The notes beneath the pieces were generated by a model. That model did not search any database and was not told the origin of the DNA. It saw only the letters and a program-made list of their open reading frames with translations. Of a stretch of DNA of 64,000 bases, positions 3,413 through 53,262 are shown one piece after another. Every line of letters starts with the position of its first letter. Within the stretch, counting starts at the first letter, position 1. The position numbers and the translations under genes were made by a program. The stretch comes from Antedon mediterranea (taxonomy: Eukaryota; Animalia; Echinodermata), in the NCBI RefSeq assembly GCF_964355755.1, contig NC_092680.1:20469045-20533044 (forward strand), given 5' to 3'.

Positions 3413-3862
3413 AAACAATGCAGATACGTGGTACACAGTATTCCTAAGATCATCATTCCATAATATGTAAATCTGCGTGCAAATAGCATGACAACTCGCC
3501 TGAAACTTGGTTGGCCTGTTTGCGGGGCTACAGAGTTGCTGGTTTTCGATAATTCGAAATGCATTTTCAAGTAACAATACAGGATGATACAGACTGGTGA
3601 AAACTGGTGAAAGTTTGAAATCACAATAACCAAAGCTACGTTGTTAGCGTTTAGTTCACAGTTGTTTAATATAGGCTCAGAATGTTCATACTAAAACAAA
3701 TAGCGAAATAAGACAACCACAAATATAGGGTAATAGAATAATGCCGAAATAGGTCTTACCCAGTCGTCCAGCTGCTGTTTTCTTACGGTAGAATATTGGA
3801 TGAACTATCGCTAAGTATTGCTCGATCGTGAGTGTAACGAAGTTATATGTAAATGCTGCTGT
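3413..3862 (-). pseudogene. Truncated duplicate of the adjacent GPCR gene (TM3-TM7 part)
   Basis: Highly similar to 4531-5043. It has an internal deletion of ~60 nt (AATAGCATG|ACAACTCGCC) and a 2-nt deletion near 3687, and lacks both termini. Confidence 0.85.
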
Positions 3863-3949
3863 ATTCAGTATAAATATGGAATACAAGAAAGTGAAAAAAA
3901 AACTGACGCACCGAAAAAAAAAAGAGAAAAAAGAGAAAAAAAAAGTATA

Positions 3950-4185
3950 AATAAAAGATTTACCTAAAAAATGTAATTTAAAGAAAAAATATTTAAATTG
4001 TCTGTCAGACAATGTTTTTGGTTAAAATTAACCGTTTCGTTTGTCTTTTTATTTTATAAGTGAAACAATATATATATATTTTTTTTTACAGAAGTGAATA
4101 ACTGTATTAAAACTGCAAAATGACCTATTTTAAGTCTGAATTTATTATTCTTTATTTTTCATGTTTTTGGGGGACAATACATCTT
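3950..4185. mobile_element. Truncated Kolobok-like MITE
   Basis: Ends GGGGACAATACATCT-TAA. Same family as 14391-14735, 22057-22365, ~22985-23200 and 59471-59776. Confidence 0.55.
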
Positions 4186-4393
4186 AATATTTCGACATTT
4201 TTCGACCACATTTCCTTCGCAATTATGACCTCTTCTTTACTAAAAACGGATTCCTCCAGAGGCTCAATAAGAAGTGTACCTGCTAACAAAAGCGAGAAGC
4301 AGAAAATTGTGGCAAAAATGATCGCACGTCCATAGATACGGAACCTGGAGAGAGATTTCGTGTCCTGTGTTGAACTCGTGCAGCTGTAAGGAG

Positions 4394-5329
4394 CTATATA
4401 CTGACGACTTGAGTTCTTCCATTGGTACTGATCTTTGAAATGTCTTGTTTTATTTTACCAACTCCACGTTTGAATTCTTTATAACATGTACAGTAAATAA
4501 ACGGATTAATCATTAGATTGAGATTCAACAACAATGCAGATACGTGGTACACAGTATTCCTAAGATCATCATTCCATAATATGTAAATCTGCGTGCAAAT
4601 AGCATGTGGTGTTATTGTTAAAATGTATACGGTTGCTACTGAATAAAGTGTTTTTATCAAATTTAAATGGACAACTCGCCTGAAACTTGGTTGGCCTGTT
4701 TGCGGGGCTATTGAGTTGCTGGTTTTCGATAATTCGAAATACATTTTCAAGTAACAATACAGGATGATGCAGACTGGTACAGACTGGTGAAAGTTTGAAA
4801 TCACAATAACCAAAGCTACGTTGTTAGTTTTTAGTTCACATTTGTTTAATATAGGCTCAGAATCTTCATTTATTAAAACAAACAGCGAAATAAGACAACC
4901 ACAAATATAGGGTAATAGAATAATGCCGAAATAGGTCTTACCCAGTCGTCCAGCTGCTGTTTTCTTACGGTAGAATATTGGATGAACTATCGCTAAGTAT
5001 TGTTCGATCGTGAGTGTAACAAAGTTGTATGTAGATGCTGCTGCGAACATATAAAAGAAAAAATGAAGTTTACAATATTTAGTTCCTTTAATTATATCGG
5101 AACAAAAAAACAACAAGAACATCAAAGATCCCAAGAAATCAATCAGTGTCTGATTTACAATTAGTTTCACCGACAAAGACTTTTTGTAACTTCTGTTGTA
5201 GAGAAACACAGCCAAAGTTACCAAGTTTCCAACGACACCAAATGAAGCAACAATCCATCGCAAAATAACGAGAGGCATTGGATCTTGCCATTCTATGCTA
5301 GCCAACGTATCATTTTTAAATTCAGCCAT
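4394..5329 (-). CDS. Intronless rhodopsin-family (class A) orphan GPCR, 311 aa from ATG 5329
   Basis: MAEFKNDT (N-glycosylation site), TM1 GVVGNL, TM2 LIDF, TM3 TIEQYLAIVHP (DRY-like), TM5 ILYCY, TM6 ITPH, TM7 INPFIY and a helix-8 FKRG. Confidence 0.9.
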   Translation of the reverse strand: MAEFKNDTLASIEWQDPMPLVILRWIVASFGVVGNLVTLAVFLYNRSYKKSLSVKLIVNQTLIDFLGSLMFLLFFCSDIIKGTKYCKLHFFFYMFAAASTYNFVTLTIEQYLAIVHPIFYRKKTAAGRLGKTYFGIILLPYICGCLISLFVLINEDSEPILNKCELKTNNVALVIVISNFHQSVPVCIILYCYLKMYFELSKTSNSIAPQTGQPSFRRVVHLNLIKTLYSVATVYILTITPHAICTQIYILWNDDLRNTVYHVSALLLNLNLMINPFIYCTCYKEFKRGVGKIKQDISKISTNGRTQVVSI

Positions 5330-5975
5330 AGTGTCGGTTTGAATACGAAAACAAAAATATGTGCTATTTATGCGATTTGTATTAAATCGTGGCCTAACAA
5401 CGGTCGTTTTATACGTTTTTAAAGCATGCGTCAAAGAAATTACTCGTCACCAATTGGATTATATCAGTGTTGTATTAAAAATAAGCTCGAATACCTCCCT
5501 ATTTAAATATTACCAATTGTTGTAGAATGAGTTGTAAATAGTGACCTTTAGGTAAGACGAATTATAGTAGACAATATCTTAATGCATATGTACATTTTAT
5601 AGACATACGTGTACAGGTAAAGATTCAATTCAGCAAGATCTTATATAAATAAGCTTATGTAATTAAAGCCAGGTTATAAATTTGATTTCAATAATAATGG
5701 ACAGCCCATCTAATAGGACAAACTGGCAAAAGAACCTTGTCGGCTGCGTCTTTAATGAGTTCAAATATAACGAAGCATAATTATCGATCATATCACTCTT
5801 CCTTGATCACAAAATTATTGTTTCCTAAGATATTATGTTGAATGCATTGGCGTTACCAAATTAAAAACTCCCGTCAGACCTATTGTCTGACGGGAGTTTA
5901 TTTTGTATCTCCATTGAGATCCAGCCACTGATACCCACAGCATTGTCATTTTTTTCAGTAATTTGCCTTTGGATT

Positions 5976-11330: not shown

Positions 11331-12795
11331 TAATTTGAGTTTGCAATTTTTTTTTTTCTTTTTAATAGGCCTATGAATGAAATATTTCCGAAATAAAAGA
11401 CATCGAATAATAATAATCCAGGGCAAGAATAAATTATATCAATTTAATATAAACTGAATATCAAACAAAATATATTATAGTCACGGCGGTCGGATAACTA
11501 GTTCGAGCTTAATAATTGAGCCCAAAATAGATTGTATTCGCTAACTTTTGTTATTCGTGAGTTGCCGAATTAAAAAAAATTAGGTGGAATTTTGTTCGAC
11601 CACCCCTTTAGCCGCCATTTTAAATTTCAAATTTAACTAAACTTGGTCATCCATGGTATAATCGGAATGGGAATATAAATAAGACCATAGAGATAATTAT
11701 GATATAGATACAATTAAAAGTATATACAGGTGTATAATGTAATCAACAACATGTTTTATTTCTTTGTCCAAACACTCACTTCTTTATGACGTTTTTTCTT
11801 GGCCAATTACAATCGTATCATACATAATGTTTTAGTATACATGGATTGGTCTTCTACAATGGGTGGTTAGCCAGTATTGTTACCAACTCCATAGCCCAAC
11901 GTGTAGCACAGTTATACCTTAGCATAGAAATGCATTGTATGCCTACCTTAGTTACAAAAGTATATAGTACTACAATTAATGAGTGTCTTACTTACAACGA
12001 TCAATCTGTTTTGTGGCACCTCCATTGCCTAAAGGTTGATGTGATGTGAGGTGCAATAACTACGGGGATACACCTGAATAGTTTTATGCAGATTACCCTT
12101 TTCGTTCAGGTTAAAAACCCGTCACTTATACTTGCGACAGTATTATTTTACTATTGTGATTTTAACTTTTTGGATTTTTTTACTCGGGGTACCCGAGTAT
12201 AGTAGGCCTACTCTCTTATCTTCTCGTCTTCTTCTTCCATCTGGACACTATCGAGTAAAAAAGTGCGATTTATAAAGTACTACTCCTTCCTTATTAGTTG
12301 TAGTATTGAGCTTTGGCATGAATATACTACAGGGACATGTCCTCAAAGCTGCTATAGAGACGGATTTTTAAATTTCAAATTCATAGCATAATTAGATTAG
12401 AGCTATTGCTTTGAAAAAGTGTATGTATCTACCAGGGAAGAGTTAAATTACATTAAATTGTAATTTAACTCTTCCCTGGTATCTACAATATACCGCAATG
12501 AATGAATGGCAGTAGGCCTAACGTCAACCATTTACTTGTATCCTTTTAATGTTTTTAATAATTCAGTATTAACTAATGGAAATGCACTTAGTAGTAATTG
12601 CAAATCAAAATGACGCTTTCAACTACATAAATTACTAATAAAATCGAGAAGGCAACTGTTATACAGCAACGCAAGTCATAGAGGTGTGTTTAAAACGAAG
12701 GATGAACAGTGATTCTTAGATCTTCAAACGATTCGTGTCGGCTATAATCTGCAATTATAAATACATATTATATTTTCGAGGAATATCATTTAAGT

Positions 12796-13683
12796 ATGAA
12801 TACAAGTTCGGATACTAACTTAACAGACGTAAGACTTGATAAATCTCTTATTGTCACCGGTGCTGTTGTAAGTAGTATTGGTATCGTCGCAAACTTGTTA
12901 GTCATTTTTGTGTTTGTTTACAACAGAAGTTTTAAGAAGTCTTTTTCAATCAAGTTGTTACTTCATCAGTCTTTCATTGATCTTGTAGGTTCTATAGCGT
13001 TTACTGTTTTTGTTATCTATAACCCCAATTATGATTCCGAAACTTACTATTTATGCATATGTATAGTCTGGTATATATCAGTTACATCTTCATACAATCT
13101 GGTTGTGATAACAATTGAGCGATATATCGCTGTTGTGCATCCCTACATCTATCACCAGAACAAATCAAGAAGAAATATCTTGTACTATTTATGTTTTATT
13201 TTACAATACCTACCAGGATTAATCCCTGTTATTATCGATATTATTAAGACTGAAAAGGTTCCTAACTTACGTGAAAATGACATCATTTCTTTACTGATTA
13301 TTGCATTTCTCGGTTGGGTCTTACCTACCTCAACTATGACATACTGTTATGGATGTATATTATGGAAGCTATTTAGAAGATCAGCAGTTGGTAGTCCATT
13401 ATCACAGCCACAGCAAAGAAAAAACGATGGAAGAAAAACAAATCTTTTATCAACTCTTCTTGCTGTTACCGCAGTGTTTTATATAACATCTACGCCATGC
13501 TATATATGTTGTGCAGCTAATCATTTGTGTACATGCGTTGATCTTACTCTTTATGACATATCGTTGTTGTTATTTGCTTTAAATTTAACAATCAATCCGT
13601 TTATTTACACCATAACTTTCAATCAATTTCAGCAAGAACTTTTGAAGATCATAAATTGTATTATACATTTAGGCCTATTTTAA
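12796..13683 (+). CDS. Intronless class A orphan GPCR, 295 aa
   Basis: N-glycosylation sites NTS/NLT, TM1 GIVANL, TM2 FIDL, TIERYIAVVHP, TYCY, STPC, TINPFIY. Confidence 0.92.
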   Translation: MNTSSDTNLTDVRLDKSLIVTGAVVSSIGIVANLLVIFVFVYNRSFKKSFSIKLLLHQSFIDLVGSIAFTVFVIYNPNYDSETYYLCICIVWYISVTSSYNLVVITIERYIAVVHPYIYHQNKSRRNILYYLCFILQYLPGLIPVIIDIIKTEKVPNLRENDIISLLIIAFLGWVLPTSTMTYCYGCILWKLFRRSAVGSPLSQPQQRKNDGRKTNLLSTLLAVTAVFYITSTPCYICCAANHLCTCVDLTLYDISLLLFALNLTINPFIYTITFNQFQQELLKIINCIIHLGLF

Positions 13684-15163: not shown

Positions 15164-15602
15164 GATACCGAAGTAATTAGAATAACACAACAGTCGTTTA
15201 ATAATTTACCCGTATATGTGTGAAGTGTATTAAGTGAAATTAAATAATTTATTAGTACAGTATTGTTTTGTAATTGAAATACAAAGCATTATAGAGATTT
15301 ACAGCTTTTACTATTGTCAGTGGTTTTTAAATAAACTTAACGCCCACCAAGCTTAGATTAGAAAGAGATACAGAAAAGTGCGAGTCAAAAATAGAAGCAA
15401 CTTTAATATATAAAAGTGTCGGAACTTTATCGGTGAGGTCAGAAACAGAAATGAAGTACTTTCTTTTGATCCAGCAAAGTATCAGTAGGGCGGCTAAGTG
15501 AGAACAGTTTATTATTCTGATATGTGACAGAAATATTTCTTTTATCAAGTTGAGGTACAGCTTTCTACACCAAAACGTATCAACTTATATTTAGAGTTAA
15601 GG

Positions 15603-16457
15603 ATGAATTGTTCTTCAAACTCATCAGAAGGACTTGATAAATATATTATTGTCACCGGTGCTGTTGTAAGTAGTATTGGTATCTTGTCAAACTTGTTAGT
15701 CATTTTTGTGTTTGTTTATAACAGAAGTTTTAAGAAGTCTTTTTCAATCAAGTTGTTACTTCATCAGTCGGTCATTGATCTTGTAGGTTCTATAGCGTTT
15801 ACTGTTTTTGTTGGTTGTAATCCTCGGTATAACTCTGAAACTCTGTTAACAATTATATTCTGGTATATAACAGTAACATCTTCATACAATCTGGTTGTAA
15901 TAACAATGGAACGATACATTGCCGTCGTACATCCGTATGTTTATCGTCGACACAAATCATTAAAGAAAAGGGTGCTGTATATTTCTTTTATAATTCCATA
16001 CCTACCGGGATTAATCGGTGTTATTGTGGATATTATCGAAATTGATAAGTATGTAAAAGTCACTAAAGTGGACACATTGTCTCTTCTGATTTCAACATTT
16101 CTTGGTTGGTTCTTACCTACCACAACTATTACATACTGTTACGGACGTATATTATGGAAGCTATTCAGAAGATCGGCAGTTGGTAGTCCATCATCACCAC
16201 ACCACAATGATCGTAGTAGAAAAACACATCTTTTATCAACTCTTCTTGTGGTTATCGCAGTATTTTATATAACAGTCACGCCATGCTATACATGTTTACT
16301 AATTGATCACTTATGTTCATGTATTCATCATATTATTTCTGAAATATTGTTTCTGTTATTTGCTTTTAATTTAACAATAAATCCATTTATTTACGCCATG
16401 GCTTTCAGTGAATTTCAGCAACGATTTTTTAAGATCATTCACTGTATTGCAAATTAA
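15603..16457 (+). CDS. Intronless class A orphan GPCR, 284 aa, tandem paralog of 12796-13683
   Basis: GILSNL, VIDL, TMERYIAVVHP, TYCY, VTPC, TINPFIY; collinear with the upstream paralog. Confidence 0.92.
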   Translation: MNCSSNSSEGLDKYIIVTGAVVSSIGILSNLLVIFVFVYNRSFKKSFSIKLLLHQSVIDLVGSIAFTVFVGCNPRYNSETLLTIIFWYITVTSSYNLVVITMERYIAVVHPYVYRRHKSLKKRVLYISFIIPYLPGLIGVIVDIIEIDKYVKVTKVDTLSLLISTFLGWFLPTTTITYCYGRILWKLFRRSAVGSPSSPHHNDRSRKTHLLSTLLVVIAVFYITVTPCYTCLLIDHLCSCIHHIISEILFLLFAFNLTINPFIYAMAFSEFQQRFFKIIHCIAN

Positions 16458-17373: not shown

Positions 17374-18252
17374 CCATTAGTTTCTTTTGTCAGTATAAAA
17401 TGAAGTTTAAAAGGTTATCCAGTTATCTTAAGCTCTGTCTACACTATCAAACTAGTTTGAAAAAAAAAAGTGTGATGTACCCAAATATGGTTGTGATATG
17501 CCCAAATATGGTAGTGTTATGAAATCATCATATCTATATTTGGGCACATCACATAAAGTTTGATGTGTAGACAGAGTTGTATACAATTGTTTTAATAAAA
17601 AATGTTTTAATTTTTTTTCTCATTAATTAAATAAATAAAAAATCAATTGGTGTATAATATTCTTACGATGTTGATCTTATAATAATCATGTTAAATTTGA
17701 GTTTTTGTCATTTTGAAGTGACAATAATGCATTAATGAAATATTATATCTTTCTTATACGAAATATAATCTTTACTTTTCTTAATTGATTAAACTATACA
17801 TAGTGTGTGTGCTGATTCTTACAGGCTGGGAGGAATGTTATCACTACGAAACATGACATTTATAACATTTCAAAAAGATTATCTGCATGCTAAACTTGGT
17901 TAGATCTGCATTGCTTACCATCTAGCTAAAACATAGCAGAGTATTGGGAATACAAAGGAGTGCGTCTATCGTCACCGTGTATACTGAATTATAGAAATGA
18001 ATTTCATCACAACAAAACCTAAATAATAGGAAGACACTTAAACAGCATTCAAGGGTTGTGATTTAGTTTTCCAACGGTAACATTGTGTGTAGAATAATCA
18101 CACATCAACAACAAATGATTCATTGTTCTGGCCACATCAATGTTTGTTATCAAAACTTAAACCTAAAATATATTTCAGATATATTGATGCCATTTTGTTT
18201 GTTTGTAATATCTGATTTCACTTGAAAGGTTTGAAGCCATAACTGCTTTGTT

Positions 18253-21200
18253 TCATGGTATTGCAGTGCTCTGTTTTGATTGGCTGAAAGCTTCATACAC
18301 GTTTGCGGCAAAGTCCTTCACACATTCCATTAACAATAGTTCCTACAAAAATTATTTTCATGTCCATTTATACCTGCACAAAGTGATTAGGGATGTCCCC
18401 ACAGATGAAATGGATCAGTCTATTTATGTTGCATTATGGACTTACCTGCACAAAGTAATTAGGGCTGTCCCCACAGATAAAATGGATCTGTCCATTTATG
18501 TTGCATTATGGACTTACCTGCACAAAGTAATTAGGGCTGTCCCCACAGATAAAATCGATCTGTCCATTTATGATGCATTATGGACTTACCTGCACAAAGT
18601 GGTTAGGGCTGTCCCCACAGATGAAATGGATCTGTCCATTCATGATCGGTATCAATTTGGCAAGTGGTAGATTTGTATCACAAGGACTAAAATAAGAATG
18701 TAGAAAACAAAAACGAAATCAGAATCAAATTTTCATATAAATTTAATCTATGACAGTGATCTTTAAACTATGTAAAAGCTCTTCAAAGTCTAATCTGATG
18801 CTTATAGTGTTAATAATGTTTAGTGTCACATAAATGTATATATAATAGATTTTTTCTGTATGTCTGTCCTGCATGGCATTAATTTATTTCACAAACCATA
18901 AGATACGGTGACAACCACATTTACCTTTGCTTCACTAAAACATCAAAATAAGGTTTGAAATGATTGTATTTGGAAACTTATGACTATATTGTAACTATAA
19001 TTTGACTAATACCTTATTGATAATACGTCGAAAGGTTTTTGCTCTGGTTTAGGTTTGAAACTACAGGCAATGTTATCCATGAGACGTGTGAAGGCAGTGT
19101 CCAAACATGCATTCAACACGAGGCAAAAATCAGCACTGAACAGAAAGAGAATATATAAATTAATTTTGCTATTTAATTAATTTGTTTTCTAAATGAAGAA
19201 ATTACAAGTAAGATATATGTCCAGTAAGCATCAGGGAATAATGAAAAACACACAAGGCTGCAATACCACACAAGAAAATATTGTAAGCAAGAACATGAAA
19301 AGAAACAACCAAACAGACAAGTACTAACAAACTAATTATCATGAAACTGCTTCACACCATGTTAAGTCCATGATTCACTCAATATTTTGTATTTTTTTGC
19401 TTTCCTAAAATCAGAAAATTTAAATTAAATATTACTAAAGCGCGGTTGATACTAGAATGCGACGCAGCGACGTATCGACAAAAGTGCTGTATTATGTAAT
19501 TACAAGTGCGAACCGACGACACAACAGTTCTGCAAACATCGTAGGTTTGATTTCACACAAGCAGGGGCAAACACAATAACTGGAAGAGCATTTTCTTACG
19601 TTACGCAGGTTGCGTTATGTTGCGTCGCTAGTGAAAACCAAGCTTTAGTTCTTGGTAAAAACATGAACCATGCTGCGCATATATTTTTTGGACACAATAA
19701 ATATTTTGTGACAAATTGCTGACCTTTCAATCATATCTCTTGTTTCCTGTGATAACCTGTGAAGCATGGATTCATTTTGTGGTAAACAGCATGCCTCTTC
19801 TATATTCTCTATTTGGTCATCTAGTGTTACATCATCTAACTTAAGTTCATTATCTGTTAAACCATGCTCATCCTCGGGAGGAAGAAAATATTTTGCCAAA
19901 CTTGTAGTACTGTTACCAAAATCTGGGAGAAAAGAACGAATTTGTGAACACCTTTAATCTTGAGTCAATGACATTTAAACAAATTACGAGGCTATGATCA
20001 TATACAATTAGGTTATGATCACATACAATTAGGTTATAATCACACACAATTAGGCTATGATCACATATAATTAGGTTATAATCACACACAATTAGGCTAT
20101 GATCATATACAATTAGGTTATAATCACACACAATTAGGTTATAATCACACACAATTAGGTTATGATCACACACAATTAGACTACGATCATATACAATTAG
20201 GTTATAATCACACACAATTAGGTTATAATCACACACAATTAGGTTATAATCACACACAATTAGGTTATAATCACACACAATTAGGCTATGATCATATACA
20301 ATTAGGTTATAATCACACACAATTAGGTTATAATCACACACAATTAGGCTATGATCATATACAATTAGGTTATAATCACACACAATTAGGTTATAATCAC
20401 ACACAATTAGGTTATAATCACACACAATTAGGCTATGATCACATATAATTAGGTTATAATCACACACAATTAGGCTATGATCATATACAATTAGGTTATA
20501 ATCACACACAATTAGGTTATAATCACACACAATTAGGTTATGATCACACACAATTAGACTACGATCATATACAATTAGGTTATAATCACACACAATTAGG
20601 TTATAATCACACACAATTAGGTTATAATCACACACAATTAGGTTATAATCACACACAATTAGGCTATGATCATATACAATTAGGTTATAATCACACACAA
20701 TTAGGTTATAATCACACACAATTAGGTTATAATCACACACAATTAGGTTATAATCACACACAATTAAGTTATAATCACACACAATTAGGCTATGATCACA
20801 TACAATTAGGTTATAATCACACACAATTAGGCTATGATCATATACAATTAGGCTATGATCACACACAATTAGGCTACATACCATCTGTATCCCAAATTTC
20901 AAGCTTCCTTCGAATTTTACCCACAATGCACTCAACATCCTGCAACTGTAGATTCTCTTTTAATGACATTCTGTATAAAAAAAGAAAGCAATGTGATTAC
21001 TGAAGAACAAAGAGCACGAACATTTCGACCAAACATATTTTTAAATAAATCCTAAAAAATGATAATGTTGAATTTTGTTATTGTTTCTTTTGCCTATCTG
21101 AATATTGAGGTGTTTCTTTAATAGTAGACTAAACATTTTGGCAAATTTAAGCCTAATGCAGGTCAAATTAGCAATTGAAATGACAGGTACCTATCTCTTG

Positions 21201-40600: not shown

Positions 40601-43600
40601 TAATTAAAAAAATATAAAAGTTCATAATTTTCAACTTTCACATTAAATTCATACATGTCGGAGCTCTCCTCAGATTAGCAATTATACTATTAAATATAGA
40701 CAAGTCAGACCTCCCCTTAAATTCGCAACCTTTATCAGTTTTTCATTTTATGATTACCAAAAATCTAGAAACTAAAAAAACCTTAACTCACGTTTATTCT
40801 CACTCTGTTCTTGCGTGCCTCGTCGATCTTTGCACGTATCTTGTTACGTCTATATTCCTCGTAAGCGAACGGATCAGCTATTGCACGTGCCTTGTGATAT
40901 AATCGAATATCCATAAAGTAACCGTGCATGTATGCACGTAAGAGGTTAGAACCAATGAGATTTGACAAGCCTACAACAAAGAAACAAGTTATACATCTTT
41001 ACATATGATGCCAACTGCTATATAAATACATTGCTTCATTAAAAGCTGTAATAGAGGGTAAAGCCAAAGAGTATGGGTATAAAATCAAAACAAAACATTG
41101 AGGGCACTTATCTTGCTAAATTCCCTGCATATTATAAGTTTAATTTATCAAAAAGAAATTTTGTTGTCAAAATTTACCCCACTTTATATGTGAGACTGTA
41201 TTTTAGGAGTGAGGGAAACTATATCTCCCTCTTAAAATGACGCCATCTTACCTAAACTGTCAAGATCATTGCGGGTCACAAACTTGTAATCATCATAAAC
41301 TGTGTTCATTGTGGTTTCTTCAAGTTCTTCCGTTAGATTATCGAGGAAGGAACACCACCGAGGGGCTGGGCCAAGAGACTAAAGTAAACAAGAACAAACA
41401 AAACATGATTTTGAATGCTAAAAAAAAAAAAACGCAAATAAAAATTGACAGCACTTCTATGAAAAAAAATCAAAATGAGAGTTTCCAGTTTTTTATGGAG
41501 TTTGGTTTTGAAAATTACTATTTATATAATAATCAGAAATAATTGTTCTTACTGGTACAAAGTACGTAAGCATGGTTGGGGCCTCATTGGCCATCAAAAC
41601 TAATCCAGAGTTGGGGACCAAACACATGTCATTAATGTCATTCTCTGTTTCTATAGATGTGAATGGTTTACCCTGCAACAAACAAAATAATATACGGTTA
41701 TTTATAAGTAGTAGTTTATTGTAGAAAGTGTTCTCAATATGGTATTGAAGCATCAATGCAACATGTCAAAGAGCAGAAGTGTGGTTTTAGAATAGAATTT
41801 TCAATAATAATATTATTCATTCTTAAGCTCTATCTACACTATCAAACCTTATGTGACAAAAAAATGTGATATTCTTATATGGACATGATGTCATATCACT
41901 ACCATATTTGGGCACATCACACATTTTTTGTTTGATAGTGTAGACAGAGGTTTACATATACACAGTGGTTGTACATTCAATGTCCGAGTGGTCATTAGGT
42001 TTGTTTTCCTTCTGATTTTGGTAAGGTACGATAATTTTTAAAATTCAAATTTTCAGATTGTAATTGTCTGTCTGGTTTTTAATTAATACATTGCTAAACT
42101 AGAGGGTACTCCGAGAGTACCCACCTCCGCCTACTATAAAATTCCCTTACATAAAATGTCCCCAAAAAATATATATATATATATATATATATTTTATTAG
42201 TTCTAAGTGTAAATAAGCTAACTGCACACTAAAAAGTTGTGGATGAGAGTTTGGTGTAATGGTTATGTATCCAGCCTCTCACAGTTCAAGTCCCGCTGAG
42301 TTTTTTTTTATTATTATTAATTTATTTCTTTTTTTTGTGGACCTTTTTCTTTGACACCGACCCTTCAAAGTTTAACCACAATTATATGGTGAGTCATTGA
42401 TCATTGTAGCTAAGTTTGGTGAGAATCGGAAAAAAATGTGGTCTCTAGGCAGTAAAATAGTTTTTTGTTAGTTGTGACCTTGACCTATGACCTTTTCCCC
42501 TCAAATTCGAACGCGTCCGAGCTTTTGGGGCATAGATCATTGTGGCAAATTTGACAAAGACAATTACCGTGTTACGATTCCACATTTTGACGACCTTCTT
42601 ATCAGCTGATAGCACCAACTCCATAGAGTCTTGGAAGGTTATGGATTTGATTGGTAGCCCATATTGATGGTCCTTGATGTACAGCGGTTTAGTTGCCCTT
42701 ATGTCATACATTAATACTTGCCCAGTGCTTGTACCCACTGCCATGTGCAAGCCATCTTGGAACTTGAGACATGTAACTGAGGGTATCCGATGAACACTAG
42801 AACATTACAAATTTAACATTAAAATTAGTATTGGCCAGACATAGCATTGAACATTAAAGTAATCTGTAATCAAAACTTAAGCTCTGTCTACACTATCAAA
42901 CTTTATGTGACAAAAAAATGTGATGTTCCCATATACATTATGGACATACTGATGTCATATCATTACCACATTTGGGCATATCACTACCATATTTGGGCAC
43001 ATCACACTTTTTTTCAAACTATTTTGATAGTGTAGAAAGAGCTATAAAATAACATCTAAATTAAAACACCTACTCAGAATCAGATTCTGTAACACTGCTG
43101 AGGGCACAGTCTAGAATACCAACACGACCTCTGACCCTAGGATCCCAGCATTCAACTCGTCCTTCAGCTGTACCAACTGCCAATAGATGGTGGGCTGGAT
43201 TGACTTCACAAGCGTTTATCCCACTGACAAAAGGGTAAAACAAATGGATAGCAATACAACTTTCAAATTTTTTTCAAGTGCTGGTAGGCCCTACTTTATT
43301 TGTTGTTGCTTATATGCAATTTATATTTTATTATGATATTTACACATCATGTTTAAAAAGCTGGAAAATAAAGTAGATTAACAATATGTTCAATGCTATA
43401 ATTAAAACCTTTAAACCCATAAAGTAATTCTATGTCAAATTATTTTGAGTATCTACTGTACTATGTAAAATGTCCAGAAATAAATATAGAACTTCAGTAG
43501 CTTATAAAAAATTCCAAAATGTGAACAAAATCCTGAGATATTGAGAAACATTTTGGGTTGATTTAATGTGGAATTACGGTCACCTTCCTTTCATTTTAAC

Positions 43601-46327
43601 TCACCTTGCTTCTGTGACCCATGAACTTAAAAAACGACCTTGCTCTAGGTTAATTCTGAAAATTTCTGAGCTAATCACATAAATAAAAGAATATGTAAAT
43701 AATTATAAAGCATAATACATGTGTATAAGATATTGCAATATGATTGCATATTTCAACATATTCAATTAAATTTTTTATTCATCCCGAATGCAAACGACAG
43801 AAATAATAAATAGTAATAATCCATTTAAAATACAAAAATTTAATCACATTTAAATGTAACATCAAATCTTCATCTTTTCATTTATAATACTACATATATA
43901 TATGTTATGATCACATTTCTACTGTAGTAAAATAAGCAACAATTGAATACACCAATGAGAAAATCTTATTAAAAATGTTTAATGAATATTCATAAAATCT
44001 TACCTCGCTCCAACAAGAAACAGATCACAAGACGGTTTGTGGTACACCATATCTCGTCCAAACTTTGGTATTCGTAGTTGATGATATTTGCCATAACGTG
44101 CGTGAAATTCTACGCAACGATTGCACTGTAGAAAAACCATCTAGTTGAAGAGAAATGTTAACAAATTGGATAGGATTAACAAAAATCACAATATTATAAT
44201 AAAATAAATAAAATCAATCTGGACCTAAATAAACTTGAAACTATCTTTACCTTTGAGTAATCTTCAGACAAAGTAACAAACTTGATCACTATATATTAAA
44301 AATAATATTATTTTAATAAATGAAATACAATGATGTAGCAAACAAAATGATCTTTTCTAAAAATCATCAGTAAAAACAAAAAAGATAAGATATGATATGC
44401 CCATATATAGACATGATGATGTCATATCACCACCATATTTGGGCATATCACTACCATATTTAAATAAATATTTTTATGTCAAACTAGTTTGATAGTGTAG
44501 ACAGAGCTTTAGAACGTAAATTATACAAAAATAAATTTAACAAAACATTATTGAGAATTAGACGCTACCTTCTGCGTCCATACAACGTTCAAATTTCATG
44601 GAGAGTTGTGACATGTCGTAGCACCGCACACGTGGCTTATACGTTCCAGTTACAAGTACGTACTGGCCATCCGGCGTCATCTGTATACCTGTACTTACGG
44701 TAGGCATAGTAAAGTCTTGTATTAACTCAATGCGTTTTCTAATATCTAAATATAAAATTTAATGATTAATAAAACCATCTGAATGTTCTTGTTGTGTCAA
44801 TTTAAAAGAATGTTAAAGAAATTCATGAATTATATCTTTAAAGCTTTTATCCCACTTTGATGCAATGCAATGGTATAGACACAATGCAAGTGAGTTGACC
44901 ATTCACAAATGACCATGTCGTGATTGGTCAAATTACGTATGTCGTGCTTACGTCCTTGTGTTGCATCCAAGTGGGAAGCAAGCTTTAGGCCATATTTCAT
45001 TCACATGAAAAAATTGATCGATGACCATTTCATTTGATTTCTTGTGGACAATTTTTAGTGTGTGTGTGTATAGAGCAGCTTATACCATAACAAATACCAC
45101 TCTTTAGATTTAGTTTTTAATTGTGACACAGCAGGGGTTTACATTTTATTTGTAATACTTCTGAATTTAGGAACTTGGTGCATTTACTCACCTCCATCAG
45201 ATTTCAGGAGAGCCCTTTTCTTTCTATCTGAAAGCCACTAAAAAAAATGTTCAAAAATTACATACAATTTATAGTCACAGAGTCATATTTAATAATTAAA
45301 TAATATGTGTCACTTGCTTGCTTGTAACTTGGCAGTCCGAAATAATTATTTAACATTTTATTTAGATTACGGTATACATACATTTATAGGCCTCCTAGGC
45401 CAGCCTAGGCCTACATGATTTAGGCCTAGTTCCAAACTCCTTAAAAAAAGCTTTGGGCCGAATCGTCCAGCATTCAGCTGTAGTAAGTAAAGTACTACTA
45501 TCTAGCTAGCGTACTACCTACAGTAATTACTAGGCCTAGCTAGGCTAGGATAGGGGGAACAGACGATCGGGACCACGGACGATCGTCATACCAGTTGGGC
45601 CCGATCGTCCAGTGTTTTCAGAACCACGTTGGGCCCGATAGTCTTACCAGTTGGTCCCGATCGTCTTAGCATTGGGCCCGATAGTCTTTTGTGTTATATA
45701 AAATAATGTGCCATCATCATTTTTCATTCCTAGTGCTAGTGTCGTGCTTTTCTTGCGTAATCAAGATTTTAATTAAAAAGGTTAATTAGATTTTTTCTGA
45801 TTCTATCATAATTTTCCCCTAATTAAGTCTTAAGACTACTGCTTTTAAGAATTTCTTACCAATACTTTCGATTTATGAATAAATGTGATTGATTTTGATT
45901 GTTGTTATTGTGTAGTTTGTATTCACTATTCGCATAGTTATCTTTTAAAATTTTCCAAGAATGTTTTGGGCCCGATCATCTTGAATGAAGTGGGCCTGAT
46001 CGTCTGGGCCCGATCATCCGTGAAGTGGTCCAGATCGTCTGATAACCAAAATAGGTAGTGTAGTGGGCCTGGCCCTCTCTACTCTACTACTACTAGGCTA
46101 GGCCTAATACTGTACTAGTATCAGGGCCTGGCCTAGCCTAACTAGCTAGCTAGCTAGGCCTCCTAGCTAGAGTACTACTACTACTACTAGGCTAGACTAG
46201 GCAGGCCCAGTCGATTTCTTGTGTATTAGTATTTAATTAAAATATACAGGCTTTTAAATACCTCTGGTAAAGATTTACCAACACTAAGATTGTAAATTTT
46301 AACATCATTTGCATTTGAAACCTGCAT
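37687..46327 (-). CDS. NOL10: Nucleolar protein 10 (ENP2 homolog; WD40 + NUC153), multi-exon
   Basis: Exon 1 46327-46262 [22 protein letters not shown]; then [12 protein letters not shown]; [35 protein letters not shown]; [20 protein letters not shown]; [27 protein letters not shown]; [20 protein letters not shown]; [24 protein letters not shown]; LPKVNRDLA; [30 protein letters not shown]; last exon ..[18 protein letters not shown] at 37687. Confidence 0.96.
38495..38675. mobile_element. Representative of the dominant Harbinger-type MITE family (~16-17 copies in window)
   Basis: TIR AGCTCTGTCTACACT..AAAC / GTTTGATAGTG..TAGACAGAGCT with TAA TSD; internal CCCAAATATGGTAGTGATATG repeats. Other copies near 17431, 21508, 21592, 27940, 30871, 31530, 32650, 34120, 37290, 37853, 39582, 41826, 42880, 44385, 47490 and 58560. 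Confidence 0.85.
42098..42560. mobile_element. Helentron/HINE-like fragment(s) in a NOL10 intron
   Basis: Starts ACTAGAGGGTACTCCGAGAGTACCC (hairpin) and contains TGACCTTGACCTATGACCTTT motifs. Confidence 0.4.
45553..46047. mobile_element. Degenerate foldback/MULE-like MITE in NOL10 intron 1
   Basis: CAGACGATCGGGACCAC ... GTGGTCCAGATCGTCTG inverted ends; repeated GGGCCCGATCGTC units. Confidence 0.6.
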
Positions 46328-46493: not shown

Positions 46494-49400
46494 ATGGTCC
46501 TTCTACGAGGTACGTAAAACACAACTTGGTGGATTGGTTGATGGTGGTACCTGGTAACAAATAATTATTCTTAAAAAATCGTTTGCTGGGGTAAAGTGTC
46601 TGAAATGCTTGAAGCTTTTCTGATCAACCACTCTTAGATATAGCCTAGGAGTAGGTCTAGCTACAGTTTAGTTAGTCAAGAAAGTTGGTCTAGGTAGCCG
46701 GCCTAGGCCTACTAGGAGGCCTAGCCTAGTAGGCTAGGCCTAGGCCTGGCCCTAGTAGGCTAGCTGGCTAGTCCTAGCTAGCTTAGGCCCCTAACCTCTT
46801 TTTATTTAATATGTATGGAGTTTTAGACTACCTAGGCCTATACCTAGCTCGAGAAGAGGCTCGGCCTAGCTAAGAAGGCCTATTATACTGTAGGCCTAGC
46901 TAGTAGTATTAAGGTGTGTGTGTGCCAAACTAGATTTCCGTCCCTCCACCTAAAACATCATTTGTAAGCCTAATATTAGTATTACTAGCCTATTATTTAT
47001 TGTTTTTTAGATTTACCACTCATTACATATTTATAAAAGATGTTACGGGTCCTAACGAAGGCTAGCAAAGCAGGTAAAATTGTTTTAAAATCTTTTTTCA
47101 TAATAAAAAATAAACACACACTCACAACATGTAACATTGAGTCTTGTATATAAAATATTAACCTGTGTGAGATTGCATTAGTTTTTTGTTGTTGAGTTAA
47201 AGTGTTTGATTTATTTATTGCGTTTGAGGAATATTCTGGCAACAATAGAAAAAATCCCAGGGATTGGAAACATTCTCAGATCGTAGATTTCTTATTTTTC
47301 TATGGTGGACTGAGTGAAAGGTACTCTCATATTAATAATAATCTTTTTTGAGATGAACGTAGAGGATTCTCTGTTTCCTGTTAAGTCAAAGGGCCATGGT
47401 CTGTAAGTCAAGTGCATCCTGTTCAAGATACTGATGGCTAATTAGGGTCATGCATAAATTCATTATTTCAGCTACAACACTCTAATACTATGTCTACACT
47501 ATCAAACTAGTTTAACAAAAAAAAACTGTGATGTGCCCAAATATGGTAGTGATATACTCAAATATGGGAGTGATTTGACATTATCATGTCCATATATGGG
47601 CACATCACATGTTTTTCACATAAAGTTTGATAGTGTAGACAGAGTATTAGTGTACATTATCTTCCAGTTCAGACCTACAGTGTTATGATGAATTCTGTAT
47701 GTTTGAACAAAAGATTAGTGGAAGCCTCTTACAACAATACCTTTTAGTTCATTTCTTTTATATTTATGCAAATTGTCAAGGATAACCATAAGCTATTAAT
47801 TCACTGTCTTAAAGTTTGGAATCTTGTTTTAAAATATACTGTATATATATAATGAACACAAGAACTAGATAAAGATAAAAAAGGTATAATGAACACAAGA
47901 CTTACATACTGTAAACAAAGTCTTATAGAAAGTGGAGTGGAGTTTTTTTAACACCCCGGTCAGTGACTTGTAATAAAAGCATACAGTATATCAAGTTTTT
48001 GCTAAGTGCTACTATGACACTAAGTCTGTAAATGTGAGCTTGTTTATTATCCAAACCAAAAATTTTGATTTGCATGTCCACTATGTCGACTGTATGACAT
48101 TCAAACATTCATCTGTGAACTGCTCAGATTCCAAATGGAAAAGTCCTTATAATCTTCAGCCAGCATAATTACACTGTTGCCTTAAAGTCTTATTTCTAGT
48201 TCATTTAATTTGATTGACTAATTTACTAAGCTATACTACTACTGTAGCACTAAACACCATATAATTTTATGTTTGGACACCGTCTCAATGATGATTAAAG
48301 AACTACAGTACTCTATATGAACTACTTTATTAAGATATTATTTACTGTATATCATGGAGTACTCCATGCTGTATATTTATTAAACAAATTGATTCTGTGT
48401 TTATTATAAAATGTTTAATTATAGTAAATAAACTACATTTATATATATATATCCCAATTAGACATTTTTCAAGAATAAATCAAAAATAAAAAGTTAGGCT
48501 TTTTTAAACAGAATTTTTAGTGTATTGTATTATTGTTCAGTAAGGAAGGACACCAAAAAATTGTCCTAATTATTTTATTGATTCCCTGGAAATCTATATT
48601 CCTGGGTAGGTCTAGGCCAAGCATATTTCTTACTGTACATTGTATTAAGCGCAAATTGCAAGGCGTGGCCAGCCCCATGAGTCTCGTTTGCTGATTTTAA
48701 TCAAACTAATGATTTGCACTAATGTCCTGATCATGTAAACCGTGACAAATAAAAAAGTAATCTTTTATAATCTAATGTTGGCATATTGTTACTGCAAGAG
48801 TGTGATTACACTTAAAATATACAATGACAATGCACATTTGTATTGATATGAATGTAACCTTTAGAAAGTTTACACTTGTTTTCAATGATTTTAAAATAAT
48901 TGTTAAATATTAATATATTTCTGTCAAAGGTCTAAAAGCAACATGTTTACCCAGCCTAAGGTCAAGTCATAGGTCAAGATGTCGTCTGCTACTTCAACAG
49001 ACTGCTATCAGATGTCTGAGTACAAGGCAGCCTAACCAAAAAAAACCAAAACTGATCATATTTGACAAGGATGGCACTCTCATCTGTTGTCACTCTATCT
49101 GGACACCATGGGTCAAAGACACAACAGACAGGTACTGTGTGTTTATATCTTATTTTTATCTTATCTTACCTTTAGTAAAAAACAGGGTTGACAAGCCAGA
49201 CAGTAGGATTTGATTAGGAGAGGCTTTTGTCGAGACTCTGTGCTACACTTGAGTATTTCAATGGAAATGAAGTTGCTCAATTATCCACCCAAGACCCATA
49301 TCTCTATACATTCACTAGAACATCTGACTACAAGAGTTGTTGGGGTTTCAGTTGTAATTATAATTGTTCATTTTCAGAGTTTGGAGAGGTTTCCAATGAC

Positions 49401-52400
49401 ATAAAATAAGCACCCCTCATTCAAAAAATCAACTGCGCTTTACAAATTCAAAAGCATTTATAACCCACCTTACTGACACACAATTATAATTGTTTATTTA
49501 TTGAGATAATGCTAATTATTATTTATTTTCATTAATATTTAATTTCTTAAAACAAACACATGTGCATTTAATAATTTCTGTCAGACTGAAATTATTTAAT
49601 ATTCATCATCAAATATCAATATTACATTTTAATGCATAAATACAGATGTTTTGCTTTCATATATTTTTTTGATAGTTTATTTTAGCATTGTCTCCTATTT
49701 CAGATAAATTGAAAGAAACAAGATATTAAAGCATTTGATTTATTATTTTTTGAACTTGTTATTTTGGAGAATGAAAATTTCTTTTCTTGCACTTCCATTT
49801 TTCCTTCCTCAATTTAACTTTTATTTTAAATGTACAGTTCATATTATAATGTTTATTTCTGGTGTTCTAGATTTATAAAGAAAACAGGCCTTAATCTGGA
49901 AGAAAAAATACATCATTTGCTAAGTTATGATCCAAAAGAGGACAGACTCCTGCCAGGTCTTTTGGCGGAAAGTACGTCACAGATCATCAAAAGACAACTC
50001 TGCCAGCTTCTCCAAGACGAAGGCATCAGCGTCGATCGTAGCTTAGAAATTGTTGAAGATTGCTACAAAGAGATGGGCACAATAGACGCAAATGTGTTAG
50101 TCTCGCACGGAGATGTAAACAAGTTAATGACCGAGATTAAGGAACAAGAGATCAAAATAGCAGTGTGTACGGCAGATACAAGAGCAGGGACCATAAACAC
50201 TCTCAAAGTGATAGATGTTGAACATCTGGTTGACATGGTTGTTTGTTCAGATGATCCTGGACTGCTCCCCAAGCCTAATGCAGATGCTGCCTTTGCTATT
50301 TGTGAGAAGTTAGGCGTGGAACCAGAGAGGACCGTTATGGTTGGAGACACAATGACGGACATCAACTTTGGCATCAATGCTGGCCTCGGAAATATTGTTG
50401 GTAAGAAACAATTTTATTTTACTTTAGAAATATTTAAATTTATAAATAAGATTGACACACTCTATACATACAGTACAAATAGATTATGAAAGGAAAAATA
50501 TCTTTTGAAAAATTATATTGATAACGTCCATTTGTATATCGCCATTCCAACGATCATTGCTCATGGCGCTGTGGACTTAAAATTTACACTCTTGAACATG
50601 CTTCTTCTCTAATAAGGGCCACGTCACGTTCTCTCATCTGTCTACGACACATGAGTAATCCCCTACTTGTTTTAAAAGATGTACCGTACAGGTTCTTTAA
50701 AGTGCACACACAAGCATTTTTTGTACACTGGACTTAATAGTTTTTTAGTCCTTATCTGAGAATATTTCAAGTTCTACCTCAAGAACTATGAAGTGAGTGA
50801 GTGAGCCTTTAACCCTTGCCGATATTATAGCTATAGATTACTGTTCTTGTCTTAACTGCTCATCCACTCACTAATTCAACTTAATAAATTTTTCCTTTCT
50901 GTTATAGGTGTTCTGAGTGGCGTTTCAACGAAGAAAGATTTGCACAAATCTGCAGATTATGTCATTGATGATATTCAAGGTCTTACAAGCCTGTTCCTCA
51001 ACCGCAGTTCTCAATTACCAAATAAGCCACAGCGTCATGGCGTTTTTAATACGCCGGCTCGTTCATTTTCAACAACTTCAAATCGTTCTCAGGAATACTC
51101 TCACGTGATTGTAGGAGCAGGGTCAGCAGGTTGTATTCTTGCGAACCGTCTAACCGAAGATCAATCTAACAATGTCATGTTGCTAGAGGCTGGGCCTAAA
51201 GACTACACTTGGAAGATCCACATGCCTGCTGCGTTAGTTTACCCTCTGTGTGATGATAAGTATAACTGGTTTTACCACACTGTCCCTCAAACACATATGA
51301 ATAGTAGAAAGATGTACCAACCCCGTGGTAGAGTCTGGGGTGGGTCATCGTCCCTGAATGCAATGTGTTATGTCAGAGGTCATGCTTTAGACTACGATGG
51401 CTGGGAAAAGGCCGGAGCTGAAGGTTGGTCCTACGCCGATTGTTTGCCGTACTTTAAGAAAGCTCAGTGCCATGAGTCAGGTGAAAGTGAATATCGAGGG
51501 GGAAGCGGACCGCTGAATGTGTCGCGCGGTAAAACAAATAATCCACTATTTAACGTTTTTCTAGAGGCAGGGCAACAAGCAGGGTACCCTCGTACTCAGG
51601 ATTATAATGGATATCAATTCGAAGGATTTGATTTTATGGATTTTACAATTCACAAAGGCATTCGTTGGAGTACAGCAAATGCGTATTTGCGACCTGCTCT
51701 GAAAAGGTCAAACTTAAAGGTCACTAGTAAAACACTTACGACAAGGGTTCTATTTGACGGAACTAAAGCTGTTGGTGTGGAGTACAAACAGGGTGGGGAG
51801 ATTAAAACTGTACGAGCAGATAAAGTTATTTTAAGTTGTGGGTCGATAAACACGCCACAGCTGTTGATGTTGTCTGGAGTGGGAAATGCAGATGAATTGA
51901 AGAAACATGACATTCCAGTTGTTAACCATCTACCAGGAGTTGGACAAAACCTGCAAGACCATTTAGAAGTTTATGTTCAGATGGCTTGCTCACAGCCAGT
52001 CTCCCTTTATAAAGCACAGTGGAAATTTCCTCACAACATGATTAAGATTGGCCTCCAGTGGTTTCTCCTCCAAACTGGTTTAGGAGCGACTTCTCATCTA
52101 GAAGCGGTTGCATTCATCCGAAGCCGTGCTGGTGTAGAATATCCAGATATCCAGTTCCACTTCCTGCCATCCTCTGTCAAAGATCATGGCCGGGTAAATC
52201 CTGAACAACATTCTTTTCAAGTACACGTTGGAGCGCAAAGACCAGAAAGTCGCGGGACAATCGCGCTCCAATCCAAAAACCCTAAAGACCATCCGTTAAT
52301 AGATCCAAATTATCTGTCGACAGAAAACGATCGATGGGAAATGAGAGAATGCATCAAACTTGCACGAGAAATTTTTGAACAAGATGCGTTTGCAGCATAT

Positions 52401-52742
52401 CGTGGGAAAGAGATTTTACCCGGGGTAGATATGCAATCGGATGAACAACTAGATGCGTTTGTAAGAGAACATGGAGAGACTGCATACCATCCGTCTTGCT
52501 CTGCCAAAATGGGCAGTGAAAAAGATCCAATGGCTGTTGTTAATAAAAGAACTGAGGTATTTGGAATGGAGAACCTGTACATTGTGGATGCCTCAATAAT
52601 GCCAAATGTGACCACTGGCAATCTGAATGCACCTGTTACCATGATGGCTGAGAAGGCAGCTGATATTTTTCGTGGTCGAGAAAAACTCGCTCCATCAGAT
52701 GCCCCAGTTTACAAACCATCGAGTATAGAAACGCAACGTTGA
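46494..52742 (+). CDS. CHDH: Fusion: mitochondrial presequence + HAD-superfamily (class IA) phosphatase + choline dehydrogenase (GMC oxidoreductase); 860 aa, 4 exons
   Basis: Exons 46494-46509, 48930-49131, 49871-50400 and 50908-52742 total 2583 nt; all junctions are GT-AG and phase-compatible. HAD motifs: LIIFDKDGTL, VCTAD, PKPN, VMVGDTMTD, ..GVLSGV..ADYVIDDI. CHDH motifs: VIVGAGSAGC, IHMPAAL, PRGRVWGGSSSLNAM, VGQNLQDHLE, YHPSC, GNLNAPVTMMAEKAAD. Exon 1 is the least certain part. Confidence 0.88.
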
Positions 52743-53262
52743 TCAAAACACCTTTTAAATCTGCATATCTCAGTGTATTCCAATGTGGACACTTGTATGT
52801 GTTTGTTGCTGCAAGTTCAGGGCACTTTAACATGAATTTTCCATTATTACAAACTTTTTTAACTTGATTGATATCATTGTTGATTGTTGATTGATGTCAT
52901 TATTTTTATTCAATTGAAATACAGAATCTATTATTTTCAAGTCAATTTAAATTCAAAAGCAAGTAACGGAAAAAAAATAACAATGCTGTGGATAATTTAA
53001 ACATTAAGTTAAACAGTAAGATAATATATTTTATAATAACAATATAATATTTAAGAAAAATAATATAAAGCAATATAATACTGTAGTTAAGCAAGTAAAC
53101 TAAATTTCATTAAGTGAGTTATTGGTTTACTTATCGTTTAATTAGCCAAAATAATTTTTTTTAATTCATCAAAATTTAACAATAAAATTTATCAATTTGC
53201 CAAATAGTGTTATTTTATAGATTAAAGTACTCTGTTTGATTATTGGATTAAACTTTTGAGTT

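Follow-up and report, generated by a model that had tools for sequence, protein, structure and literature searches.

Some mitochondrial proteins are made as tandem precursors that mitochondrial processing peptidase (MPP) cuts apart; yeast Arg5,6, Atp25, Etp1, Rsm22-Cox11, and rice RPS14 are described as such in the excerpted text of PMC8734313. According to the same text, the MPP consensus has an arginine at position -2 and an aromatic residue at +1, Arg5,6 is cut at an internal site of this type (an RSY motif), and internal cleavage requires a strong N-terminal presequence. Mammalian ACAD10 is cleaved within a disordered linker where sites fit the MPP consensus, one of them R-x-Y/S, and the mature protein begins at R634-x-Y/S637; the excerpts of that study report that no stable complex of the parts and no channeling were found (PMC11342911). 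A phosphatase of the haloacid dehalogenase (HAD) superfamily is joined to a dehydrogenase in Acinetobacter MtlD, whose structure has been solved (PDB 7ocn). MtlD acts in the synthesis of compatible solutes, PHOSPHO1 and Pseudomonas PchP also belong to the HAD superfamily, and the choline dehydrogenase (CHDH) of vertebrates is a stand-alone enzyme. Here, we compare with these systems a gene of the echinoderm Antedon mediterranea, located in a window of 64,000 nucleotides (assembly GCF_964355755.1, contig NC_092680.1, positions 20,469,045 to 20,533,044, forward strand), to which all coordinates below refer. The gene encodes a HAD phosphatase and a CHDH in one protein, a fusion that is real, conserved, and uncharacterized. 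The protein is most likely a tandem mitochondrial precursor that is cleaved, with the HAD part likely supplying choline to CHDH.

A reading made from the sequence alone had proposed that 2 open reading frames of 219 and 600 amino acids form one spliced gene, and this was borne out by a single contig of 2,917 nt from run X1, which joins all coding exons with 4 introns spliced out. Its 5 blocks all lie on the forward strand. The first is a non-coding exon (46537-46590; contig positions 1-53, the 5' limit of the contig), followed by a GT..AG intron to 47010. Exon 2 (47011-47073) carries the ATG at 47040 and the first 11 codons of a presequence-like N-terminus, the remainder of which is encoded in exon 3 (48930-49131), together with the sequence RCLST (49010-49024), HAD motif I DKDGT (49064-49078), and the conserved residues W69 and W72 (49100-49111). 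Exon 4 (49871-50400) encodes the cap and core of the HAD domain, including T179 (50169), K213 (50271), and motif IV D238-D242 (50346-50360), and exon 5 (50908-52971) encodes the HAD tail, the linker, and the whole CHDH, with a stop codon at 52740-52742 and a 3' untranslated region to the limit of the contig. The contig bridges the junctions 47073/48930, 49131/49871, and 50400/50908, the latter 2 of which had been predicted from the sequence; exons 48930-49131, 49871-50400, and 50908-52742 connect in frame across GT-AG introns. The prediction failed at the 5' end: a first exon at 46494-46509 on the same strand (MVLLR), spliced at 46509/48930, is absent from the contig and unused by the database model, and the 2 upstream blocks with the ATG at 47040 take its place.

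The corrected reading frame encodes 866 amino acids, and its translation is identical, letter for letter, to RefSeq XP_071965137.1 (P0001 in our set), which is labeled "choline dehydrogenase, mitochondrial-like"; the architecture is therefore already present in RefSeq and UniRef. As had been proposed, the HAD tail lies in the same exon and frame as the entire CHDH, and no methionine occurs at residues 240-346, while the FAD-binding sequence GAGSAG begins at residue 325. The coding part of CHDH (50908-52742) is a single exon of 1.8 kb, and the HAD part contains introns. Five public runs contain this stretch, none of them recorded as RNA, and 4 were compared with it. Run X1 belongs to study P1, with its kind given as "RNA?" (a guessed RNA status), and was used only for the junctions it bridges. 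It differs from the window by 9 letters and one indel in the last exon, as would another individual. Three further runs, all from one sample of study P2, yielded long intron-containing contigs that agree with the DNA of the window, and we therefore consider the assembly sound. The junction table over the 4 runs is crowded by a repeat at 47490-47640, so that rare splice forms are invisible there. The spliced HAD-CHDH fusion itself is real.

Pfam placed a HAD domain in the 219-aa frame and a GMC (glucose-methanol-choline) oxidoreductase in the long frame. The CHDH part (51096-52739) passed the cut-offs of both TIGR01810 (751.4 bits; cut-off 732.1) and NF002550 (832.8 bits; cut-off 605), and its best match in the PDB, in sequence as well as in fold, was BetA (9lq0). 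The glycine-rich motif GxGxxG, which binds FAD, is present as GAGSAG (51114), and so is the His/Asn pair of GMC enzymes (H783, 52488; N827, 52620). By these profiles and motifs, the C-terminal 550 residues are classified as a member of the choline dehydrogenase (BetA/CHDH) family. BetA is a stand-alone protein, however, whereas the Antedon CHDH follows a HAD domain and an internal, presequence-like linker.

The claim that all 4 HAD motifs are intact, like the His/Asn pair, also stood: the catalytic residues D57, D59, T179, K213, D238, and D242 are all present and were nearly invariant in an alignment of about 60 eukaryotic and 22 bacterial rows. In the model of P0001, helices 65-143 form a helical C1 cap following motif I, and the model of the homologue P0012 (predicted local distance difference test, pLDDT, 91) superimposed on PDB 4ex7 with a Z-score of 25.2 and a root-mean-square deviation (rmsd) of 2.2 over 209 aligned residues. 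The HAD is accordingly classed, from motifs and models, as a C1-cap HAD phosphatase with a complete set of catalytic motifs. Named NCBIfam equivalogs of HAD enzymes (PGP, PpaX, PhnX, PhnX-like, and others) scored at best 64 bits against cut-offs of 170-225, and the domain passed only the cut-off of the generic HAD-IA-v1 subfamily. Neither P0001 nor P0067 matched PF06888 (Put_Phosphatase, the PHOSPHO1 family) at E<=0.001. The proposed reaction is that of PHOSPHO1, a known phosphocholine phosphatase, but the domain is not a member of that family; by its signature DKDGT...W..W and its presequence-like leader, the domain is assigned to a separate, uncharacterized C1-cap family. With the full model as query, every match listed by Foldseek was a GMC enzyme, and an Atlas search gave generic HAD clusters only. 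Structure searches with the HAD alone found assorted small-molecule C1 phosphatases at 14-26% identity, none of which stood out, and the substrate is therefore not named by structure. Pseudomonas PchP did not appear among the matches listed, which carries no weight against kinship.

When proteins of 687-2,000 residues were searched by profile, the architecture proved widely conserved: HAD and GMC domains occurred together in 55 of the 61 long homologues. The fusion is thus not special to this genome, and the suspicion that it might already be present in databases proved correct. It spans ten animal phyla, with crinoids, hemichordates, amphioxus, a copepod, a nematomorph, an acoel, a flatworm, an annelid, nemerteans, and many molluscs among its bearers, as well as 2 protists, Rhodelphis marinus and Thecamoeba quadrilineata. 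The data for both protists are transcriptomes of predators, where contamination by prey is possible; in a quick tree, the Rhodelphis CHDH clustered with a bacterial BetA, away from the animals. Quick trees with SH-aLRT (approximate likelihood ratio) support only, and without a vertebrate CHDH, recovered crinoids with hemichordates as well as groups of molluscs; their deep branches are resolved too weakly for events of fusion and fission to be counted. Of the 61 long matches and the 120 of 656 short matches listed, none bore the name of a vertebrate, an insect, or a sea urchin, in a word-based search that does not establish absence. In nematodes (C. elegans F45E1.4), Nematostella, Clavelina, and Albugo, the HAD is encoded as a separate protein, with presequence-like leaders in C. 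elegans and Clavelina. Short matches that seem to stand alone are often truncated pieces of fusions, and were excluded from the count of split genes.

Most spiralian proteins carry 2 HAD domains. In 7 of 10 second domains, all from molluscs, the second aspartate is replaced by histidine; motif I reads D-L/F-H-G-T in P0003, P0004, P0007, P0158, and other molluscs. Judging by this motif, the molluscan second HAD is likely a non-catalytic copy. The second HADs of nemerteans and an annelid retain DKDGT. We found no description of the HAD-CHDH fusion or of this HAD family in the open-access literature (Creative Commons PMC and bioRxiv, main texts). The fusion goes unmentioned in the excerpted parts of a paper on oyster CDH and of a study that surveyed marine eukaryotes for betaine genes, and the excerpts of PMC10132767 and PMC12478193 name no such HAD.

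Indications of what the HAD acts on come from bacteria. A profile search of 1.84 billion representatives yielded close homologues of prokaryote type; a scan of bacterial genomes found no relative with the eukaryotic alignment, and found relatives with the prokaryote-type alignment. Of 534 confirmed genome stretches, the best 80 loci were kept, their genes were called and clustered anew, and the cluster representatives were annotated. In 35 of these 80 loci, a choline or betaine marker lay at most 7 kb from the HAD gene: DMGDH/GcvT-like proteins in 16, OpuAC with ProW/ChoW-type ABC transporters in 12, MttB in 7, GbsB-type choline dehydrogenases in 4, BHMT-like proteins in 2, and BetA in 1. Among genomes picked for having such a neighbor, the neighboring gene was the top copy of its genome for GbsB (4/4) and BetA (1/1), and the neighboring ProW/ChoW-type permease was the sole one at E<=1e-30 in 5 of 5. 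At one locus (L132), the HAD gene lies directly behind choXWV and opposite betI-betA, with betA, betI, choX, and choW all above curated cut-offs. A HAD homologue was present in 45 of 401 sampled Pseudomonadota genomes; when 20 Pseudomonadota loci were viewed over 12 kb, one (the same L132) had betA-betI opposite choXWV-HAD, nine had MttB, and four lay beside lpxK. Of 21 plasmid matches, 9 were inspected: 2 had PhnS2-like ABC transporters, 2 had Ugp-like ABC transporters with a phosphoesterase, 1 had MttB, and 4 had unrelated neighbors.

The link between this HAD family and choline metabolism, which the sequence-only reading had drawn from the fusion, gains backing from bacterial gene neighborhoods, a check suggested in that reading. 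The family is tied to choline repeatedly, though not always, by 2 unrelated bacterial dehydrogenases (BetA and GbsB) and by the eukaryotic fusion. Phosphocholine would be the simplest substrate, and this gene context makes it probable that the HAD is a phosphocholine-type phosphatase. Phosphocholine is known to be demethylated by an MttB enzyme (PMC12155760, as excerpted), which makes phosphorylated N-methylethanolamines a close alternative. At high salinity, mRNA of the F45E1.4 homologue in Litoditis goes up 1.8-2.2-fold and its protein 2.2-2.9-fold (PMC9025465, Table 2, as excerpted), a response that fits an osmolyte role of the HAD without proving it.

Three further features of the bacterial loci were observed. 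The SBP_bac_6 binding protein of an ABC transporter is encoded in 38 loci (between L012 and L080), mostly just upstream of the HAD gene, and also in L123; this transporter, found in Chloroflexota and one proteobacterium, is a candidate phosphocholine importer. A CehA/McbA-type or similar PHP-like metallohydrolase gene directly precedes the HAD gene in 3 loci (L006:5533-7720, L074:4729-6382, and L076:5854-7571), the L006 pair being part of a Ugp-like ABC operon, and both proteins appear to be fused in P0205. Such pairs could form a phosphodiesterase-plus-phosphatase module for glycerophosphodiesters. Finally, prokaryote-type HADs of this family are fused to an MFS transporter or RNase H in P0269, P0321, and P0332.

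The alternative that survives best accepts that the precursor is cut, and holds that the HAD either uses another phosphoester, such as glycerol 3-phosphate, phosphoethanolamine, or a damage metabolite, or is regulatory; the fusion would then share only targeting and osmotic regulation. It can appeal to the assorted structural neighbors described above, and to the promiscuity that is common among C1-cap HADs. It can also appeal to Ugp-like operons that include a phosphoesterase or a regulator of the DeoR/GlpR type, and to the second HAD of molluscs, which in lacking the second aspartate resembles the regulatory HAD of ACAD10. However, the BetA and GbsB dehydrogenases, the BetI/choXWV cluster, and the eukaryotic fusion all indicate choline, and the catalytic residues of the Antedon HAD are all intact. 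We consider this alternative unlikely.

That the precursor is cut at all is suggested by the linker, which varies in length and sequence among homologues. In Antedon, residues 293-314 (51018-51083) are disordered in the model (pLDDT <50) and lie within a stretch of 40 residues free of aspartate and glutamate (278-317). Within a fixed window of 60 residues ahead of the GMC domain, the motif R-x-[FY]-S-[TS] occurred in 47 of 54 fused homologues (P0184, a partial model with the linker deleted, was dropped), compared with a mean of 0.54 and a maximum of 5 in shuffled sequences, and with 0 of 789 windows taken elsewhere in these proteins. A looser form of the motif was found in 51 of the 54, with 1.99 in shuffles and 3 in the 789 other windows. 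Counted by phylum-level group, the strict motif was present in 11 of 12 and the loose one in all 12, while none of the 26 linkers between the first and second HAD contained R-x-[FY]-S-[TS]. The motif lies 17-51 residues ahead of GxGxxG, between variable flanks, and often occurs twice. In Antedon, it reads RSFST (R307-T311; 51060-51074), with a predicted cut between S308 and F309.

The last 35 residues of the linkers contain 10% arginine, 28% serine and threonine, and 2.7% aspartate and glutamate, and resemble the N-termini of the proteins. Residues 1-56 of the Antedon protein include 13 arginines and lysines, no aspartate or glutamate, and the sequence RCLST, and 44 N-termini of homologues are similar in composition. 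This composition is in line with the earlier suggestion of a mitochondrial N-terminus, which we describe as presequence-like. A conserved MPP motif in an otherwise variable and disordered linker argues that the protein is probably a tandem precursor cut into 2 enzymes, and we predict internal cleavage by MPP at RSFST with good confidence. The likeness to yeast Arg5,6 is close: both have an N-terminal presequence or a sequence resembling one, 2 enzymes per precursor, and a conserved junction in which an arginine (-2) precedes an aromatic residue (+1), and in both the component proteins are encoded in bacteria by separate, clustered genes. The enzymes differ, however; cleavage is shown for Arg5,6 and predicted for HAD-CHDH, and the latter spans ten animal phyla. 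ACAD10, a protein of animal mitochondria, likewise combines an N-terminal HAD, a disordered linker, and a C-terminal flavoenzyme. In contrast to the HAD described here with its 4 motifs, that of ACAD10 lacks a full DxD and is seemingly regulatory, the cut separates the kinase from the ACAD, and the pathway is that of 4-hydroxy fatty acids. By analogy, HAD-CHDH would act like Arg5,6 or ACAD10 if cut, and like MtlD if uncut.

An uncut protein would be a single chain after removal of the presequence, a bifunctional phosphatase/dehydrogenase for osmolyte synthesis, with the linker motif as an uncut relic of a CHDH presequence. One reading frame and one transcript are what such a protein would need, MtlD provides a solved example whose HAD shares the fold class (Z 21.1, rmsd 3.9, 215 aligned), and internal cleavage is reported to depend on a strong N-terminal presequence (PMC8734313, as excerpted). 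MtlD is bacterial, however, with an NAD(P)-dependent dehydrogenase and another solute as product. A neutral relic would not be expected to last in 47 of 54 proteins and 11 groups amid varying flanks and spacing, nor to be doubled so frequently. Moreover, the covalent link between HAD and CHDH appears dispensable, since nematodes, Nematostella, Clavelina, and Albugo have a separate HAD. The single bifunctional enzyme first envisaged is therefore not favored as the most likely form, the conserved MPP-type motif indicating 2 proteins instead; we rate the uncut chain as rather improbable.

Less probable still is that the linker is a genuine N-terminal presequence of an isoform with CHDH only, which would arise from a start further downstream or through omission of the HAD exons, with the long form as a minor product. 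Exons 2 and 5 are both in phase 1, and skipping from one to the other would leave an open frame of 622 amino acids; shorter isoform models also exist for scallops and Mytilus. Antedon, however, has no methionine at residues 240-346, and among homologues a methionine lies 8-45 residues ahead of the motif in 23 of 47, against a chance expectation of 42%, so that an internal start is not a general explanation. The single spliced contig includes all HAD exons, although contigs lose rare variants. Lastly, an artefact of annotation or assembly that merged 2 neighboring genes, as gene models sometimes do (the coral model P0133 joins a HAD to a histidine phosphatase), has a negligible chance and was rejected, given the exon shared by the HAD tail and CHDH, the spliced contig, the other runs that match the DNA of the window, and the same architecture in 55 homologues.

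On the tandem-precursor reading, one mRNA would be translated into the 866-residue protein, in which a presequence-like leader is followed by the HAD phosphatase, the linker, and CHDH. Import of this protein into mitochondria is likely. There, MPP is predicted to cut at RSFST, converting the 97-kDa precursor into 2 enzymes of about 30 kDa (residues 42-308) and 62 kDa (310-866). The HAD likely dephosphorylates phosphocholine or a close N-methylated ethanolamine phosphate to choline, which CHDH would then oxidize towards glycine betaine. If the protein is cut, the fusion would serve co-expression and co-targeting rather than substrate channeling. On balance, we lean towards this reading as a whole.

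Several observations weigh against it. Transcript support comes from one contig of one study whose kind is only guessed to be RNA. The strict motif is missing from 7 of the 54 linkers and the loose one from 3, and the 54 rows are not independent, as 32 of them are molluscs. In bacteria, 45 of the 80 loci have no choline or betaine marker, nearly all 80 are from Chloroflexota and many share one common operon, and DMGDH-like proteins (3-5 per genome) and MttB (4-8 per genome) are multi-copy and hence weaker markers. Distant homologues lie beside waaA/lpxK in rhizobia, beside an aminotransferase gene in Staphylococcus, and between diacylglycerol kinase and gabT in Bacillus, and operons with a Ugp-like ABC transporter and a phosphoesterase fit glycerol 3-phosphate equally well. 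Finally, we know of no mitochondrial carrier for phosphocholine; the papers on SLC25A48 are reportedly about choline.

Elsewhere in the window, a NOL10-like gene (42445-46327, reverse strand) is transcribed away from the fusion gene. Its ATG (46327) lies 210 bases from the 5' end of the contig at 46537, and the 2 genes likely share a bidirectional promoter. The repeat in the intron after exon 2 (47490-47640) is a short element of very high copy number that contains a 21-bp repeat and recurs near 17472, 30907, 31569, 32670, 37346, 38562, and 42956; its ends look complementary, and it may be a miniature inverted-repeat transposable element. Three single-exon genes encode rhodopsin-family seven-transmembrane receptors (3686-5446, reverse strand; 12748-13683 and 15528-16457, forward strand), and the first is partly repeated at 3686-4021. 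A 21-bp minisatellite of 42 copies (19989-20873) is open in several frames and is probably non-coding.

Glycine betaine is in widespread use as an osmolyte, and a route to it is encoded in most of the marine invertebrate genomes that have been surveyed (PMC7240134, as excerpted). As a tentative proposal, which we hold as a possibility somewhat short of likely, an ancestral bilaterian, or perhaps an earlier eukaryote, made CHDH as an MPP-cut polyprotein with an unrecognized mitochondrial phosphocholine phosphatase; vertebrates kept the dehydrogenase only, while in nematodes, cnidarians, and tunicates the phosphatase has stayed on as a gene of its own (F45E1.4 in C. elegans). Internal processing by MPP has been demonstrated for fungal proteins and for mammalian ACAD10 (PMC8734313 and PMC11342911, as excerpted), and HAD-CHDH, if the reading is true, would add a widely conserved animal case. 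It would also give a testable function to an orphan HAD family that includes F45E1.4 and many bacterial genes annotated as "HAD family hydrolase," making it a new family of phosphocholine phosphatases that extends from bacteria to animals. The source of choline for betaine has been less clear so far; an extra step upstream of CHDH would be placed within mitochondria, and betaine synthesis would be fed by a mitochondrial pool of phosphocholine. For oysters, mussels, and other farmed species, the reading would change how their "CHDH-like" proteins of about 900 and 1,200 residues are to be read.

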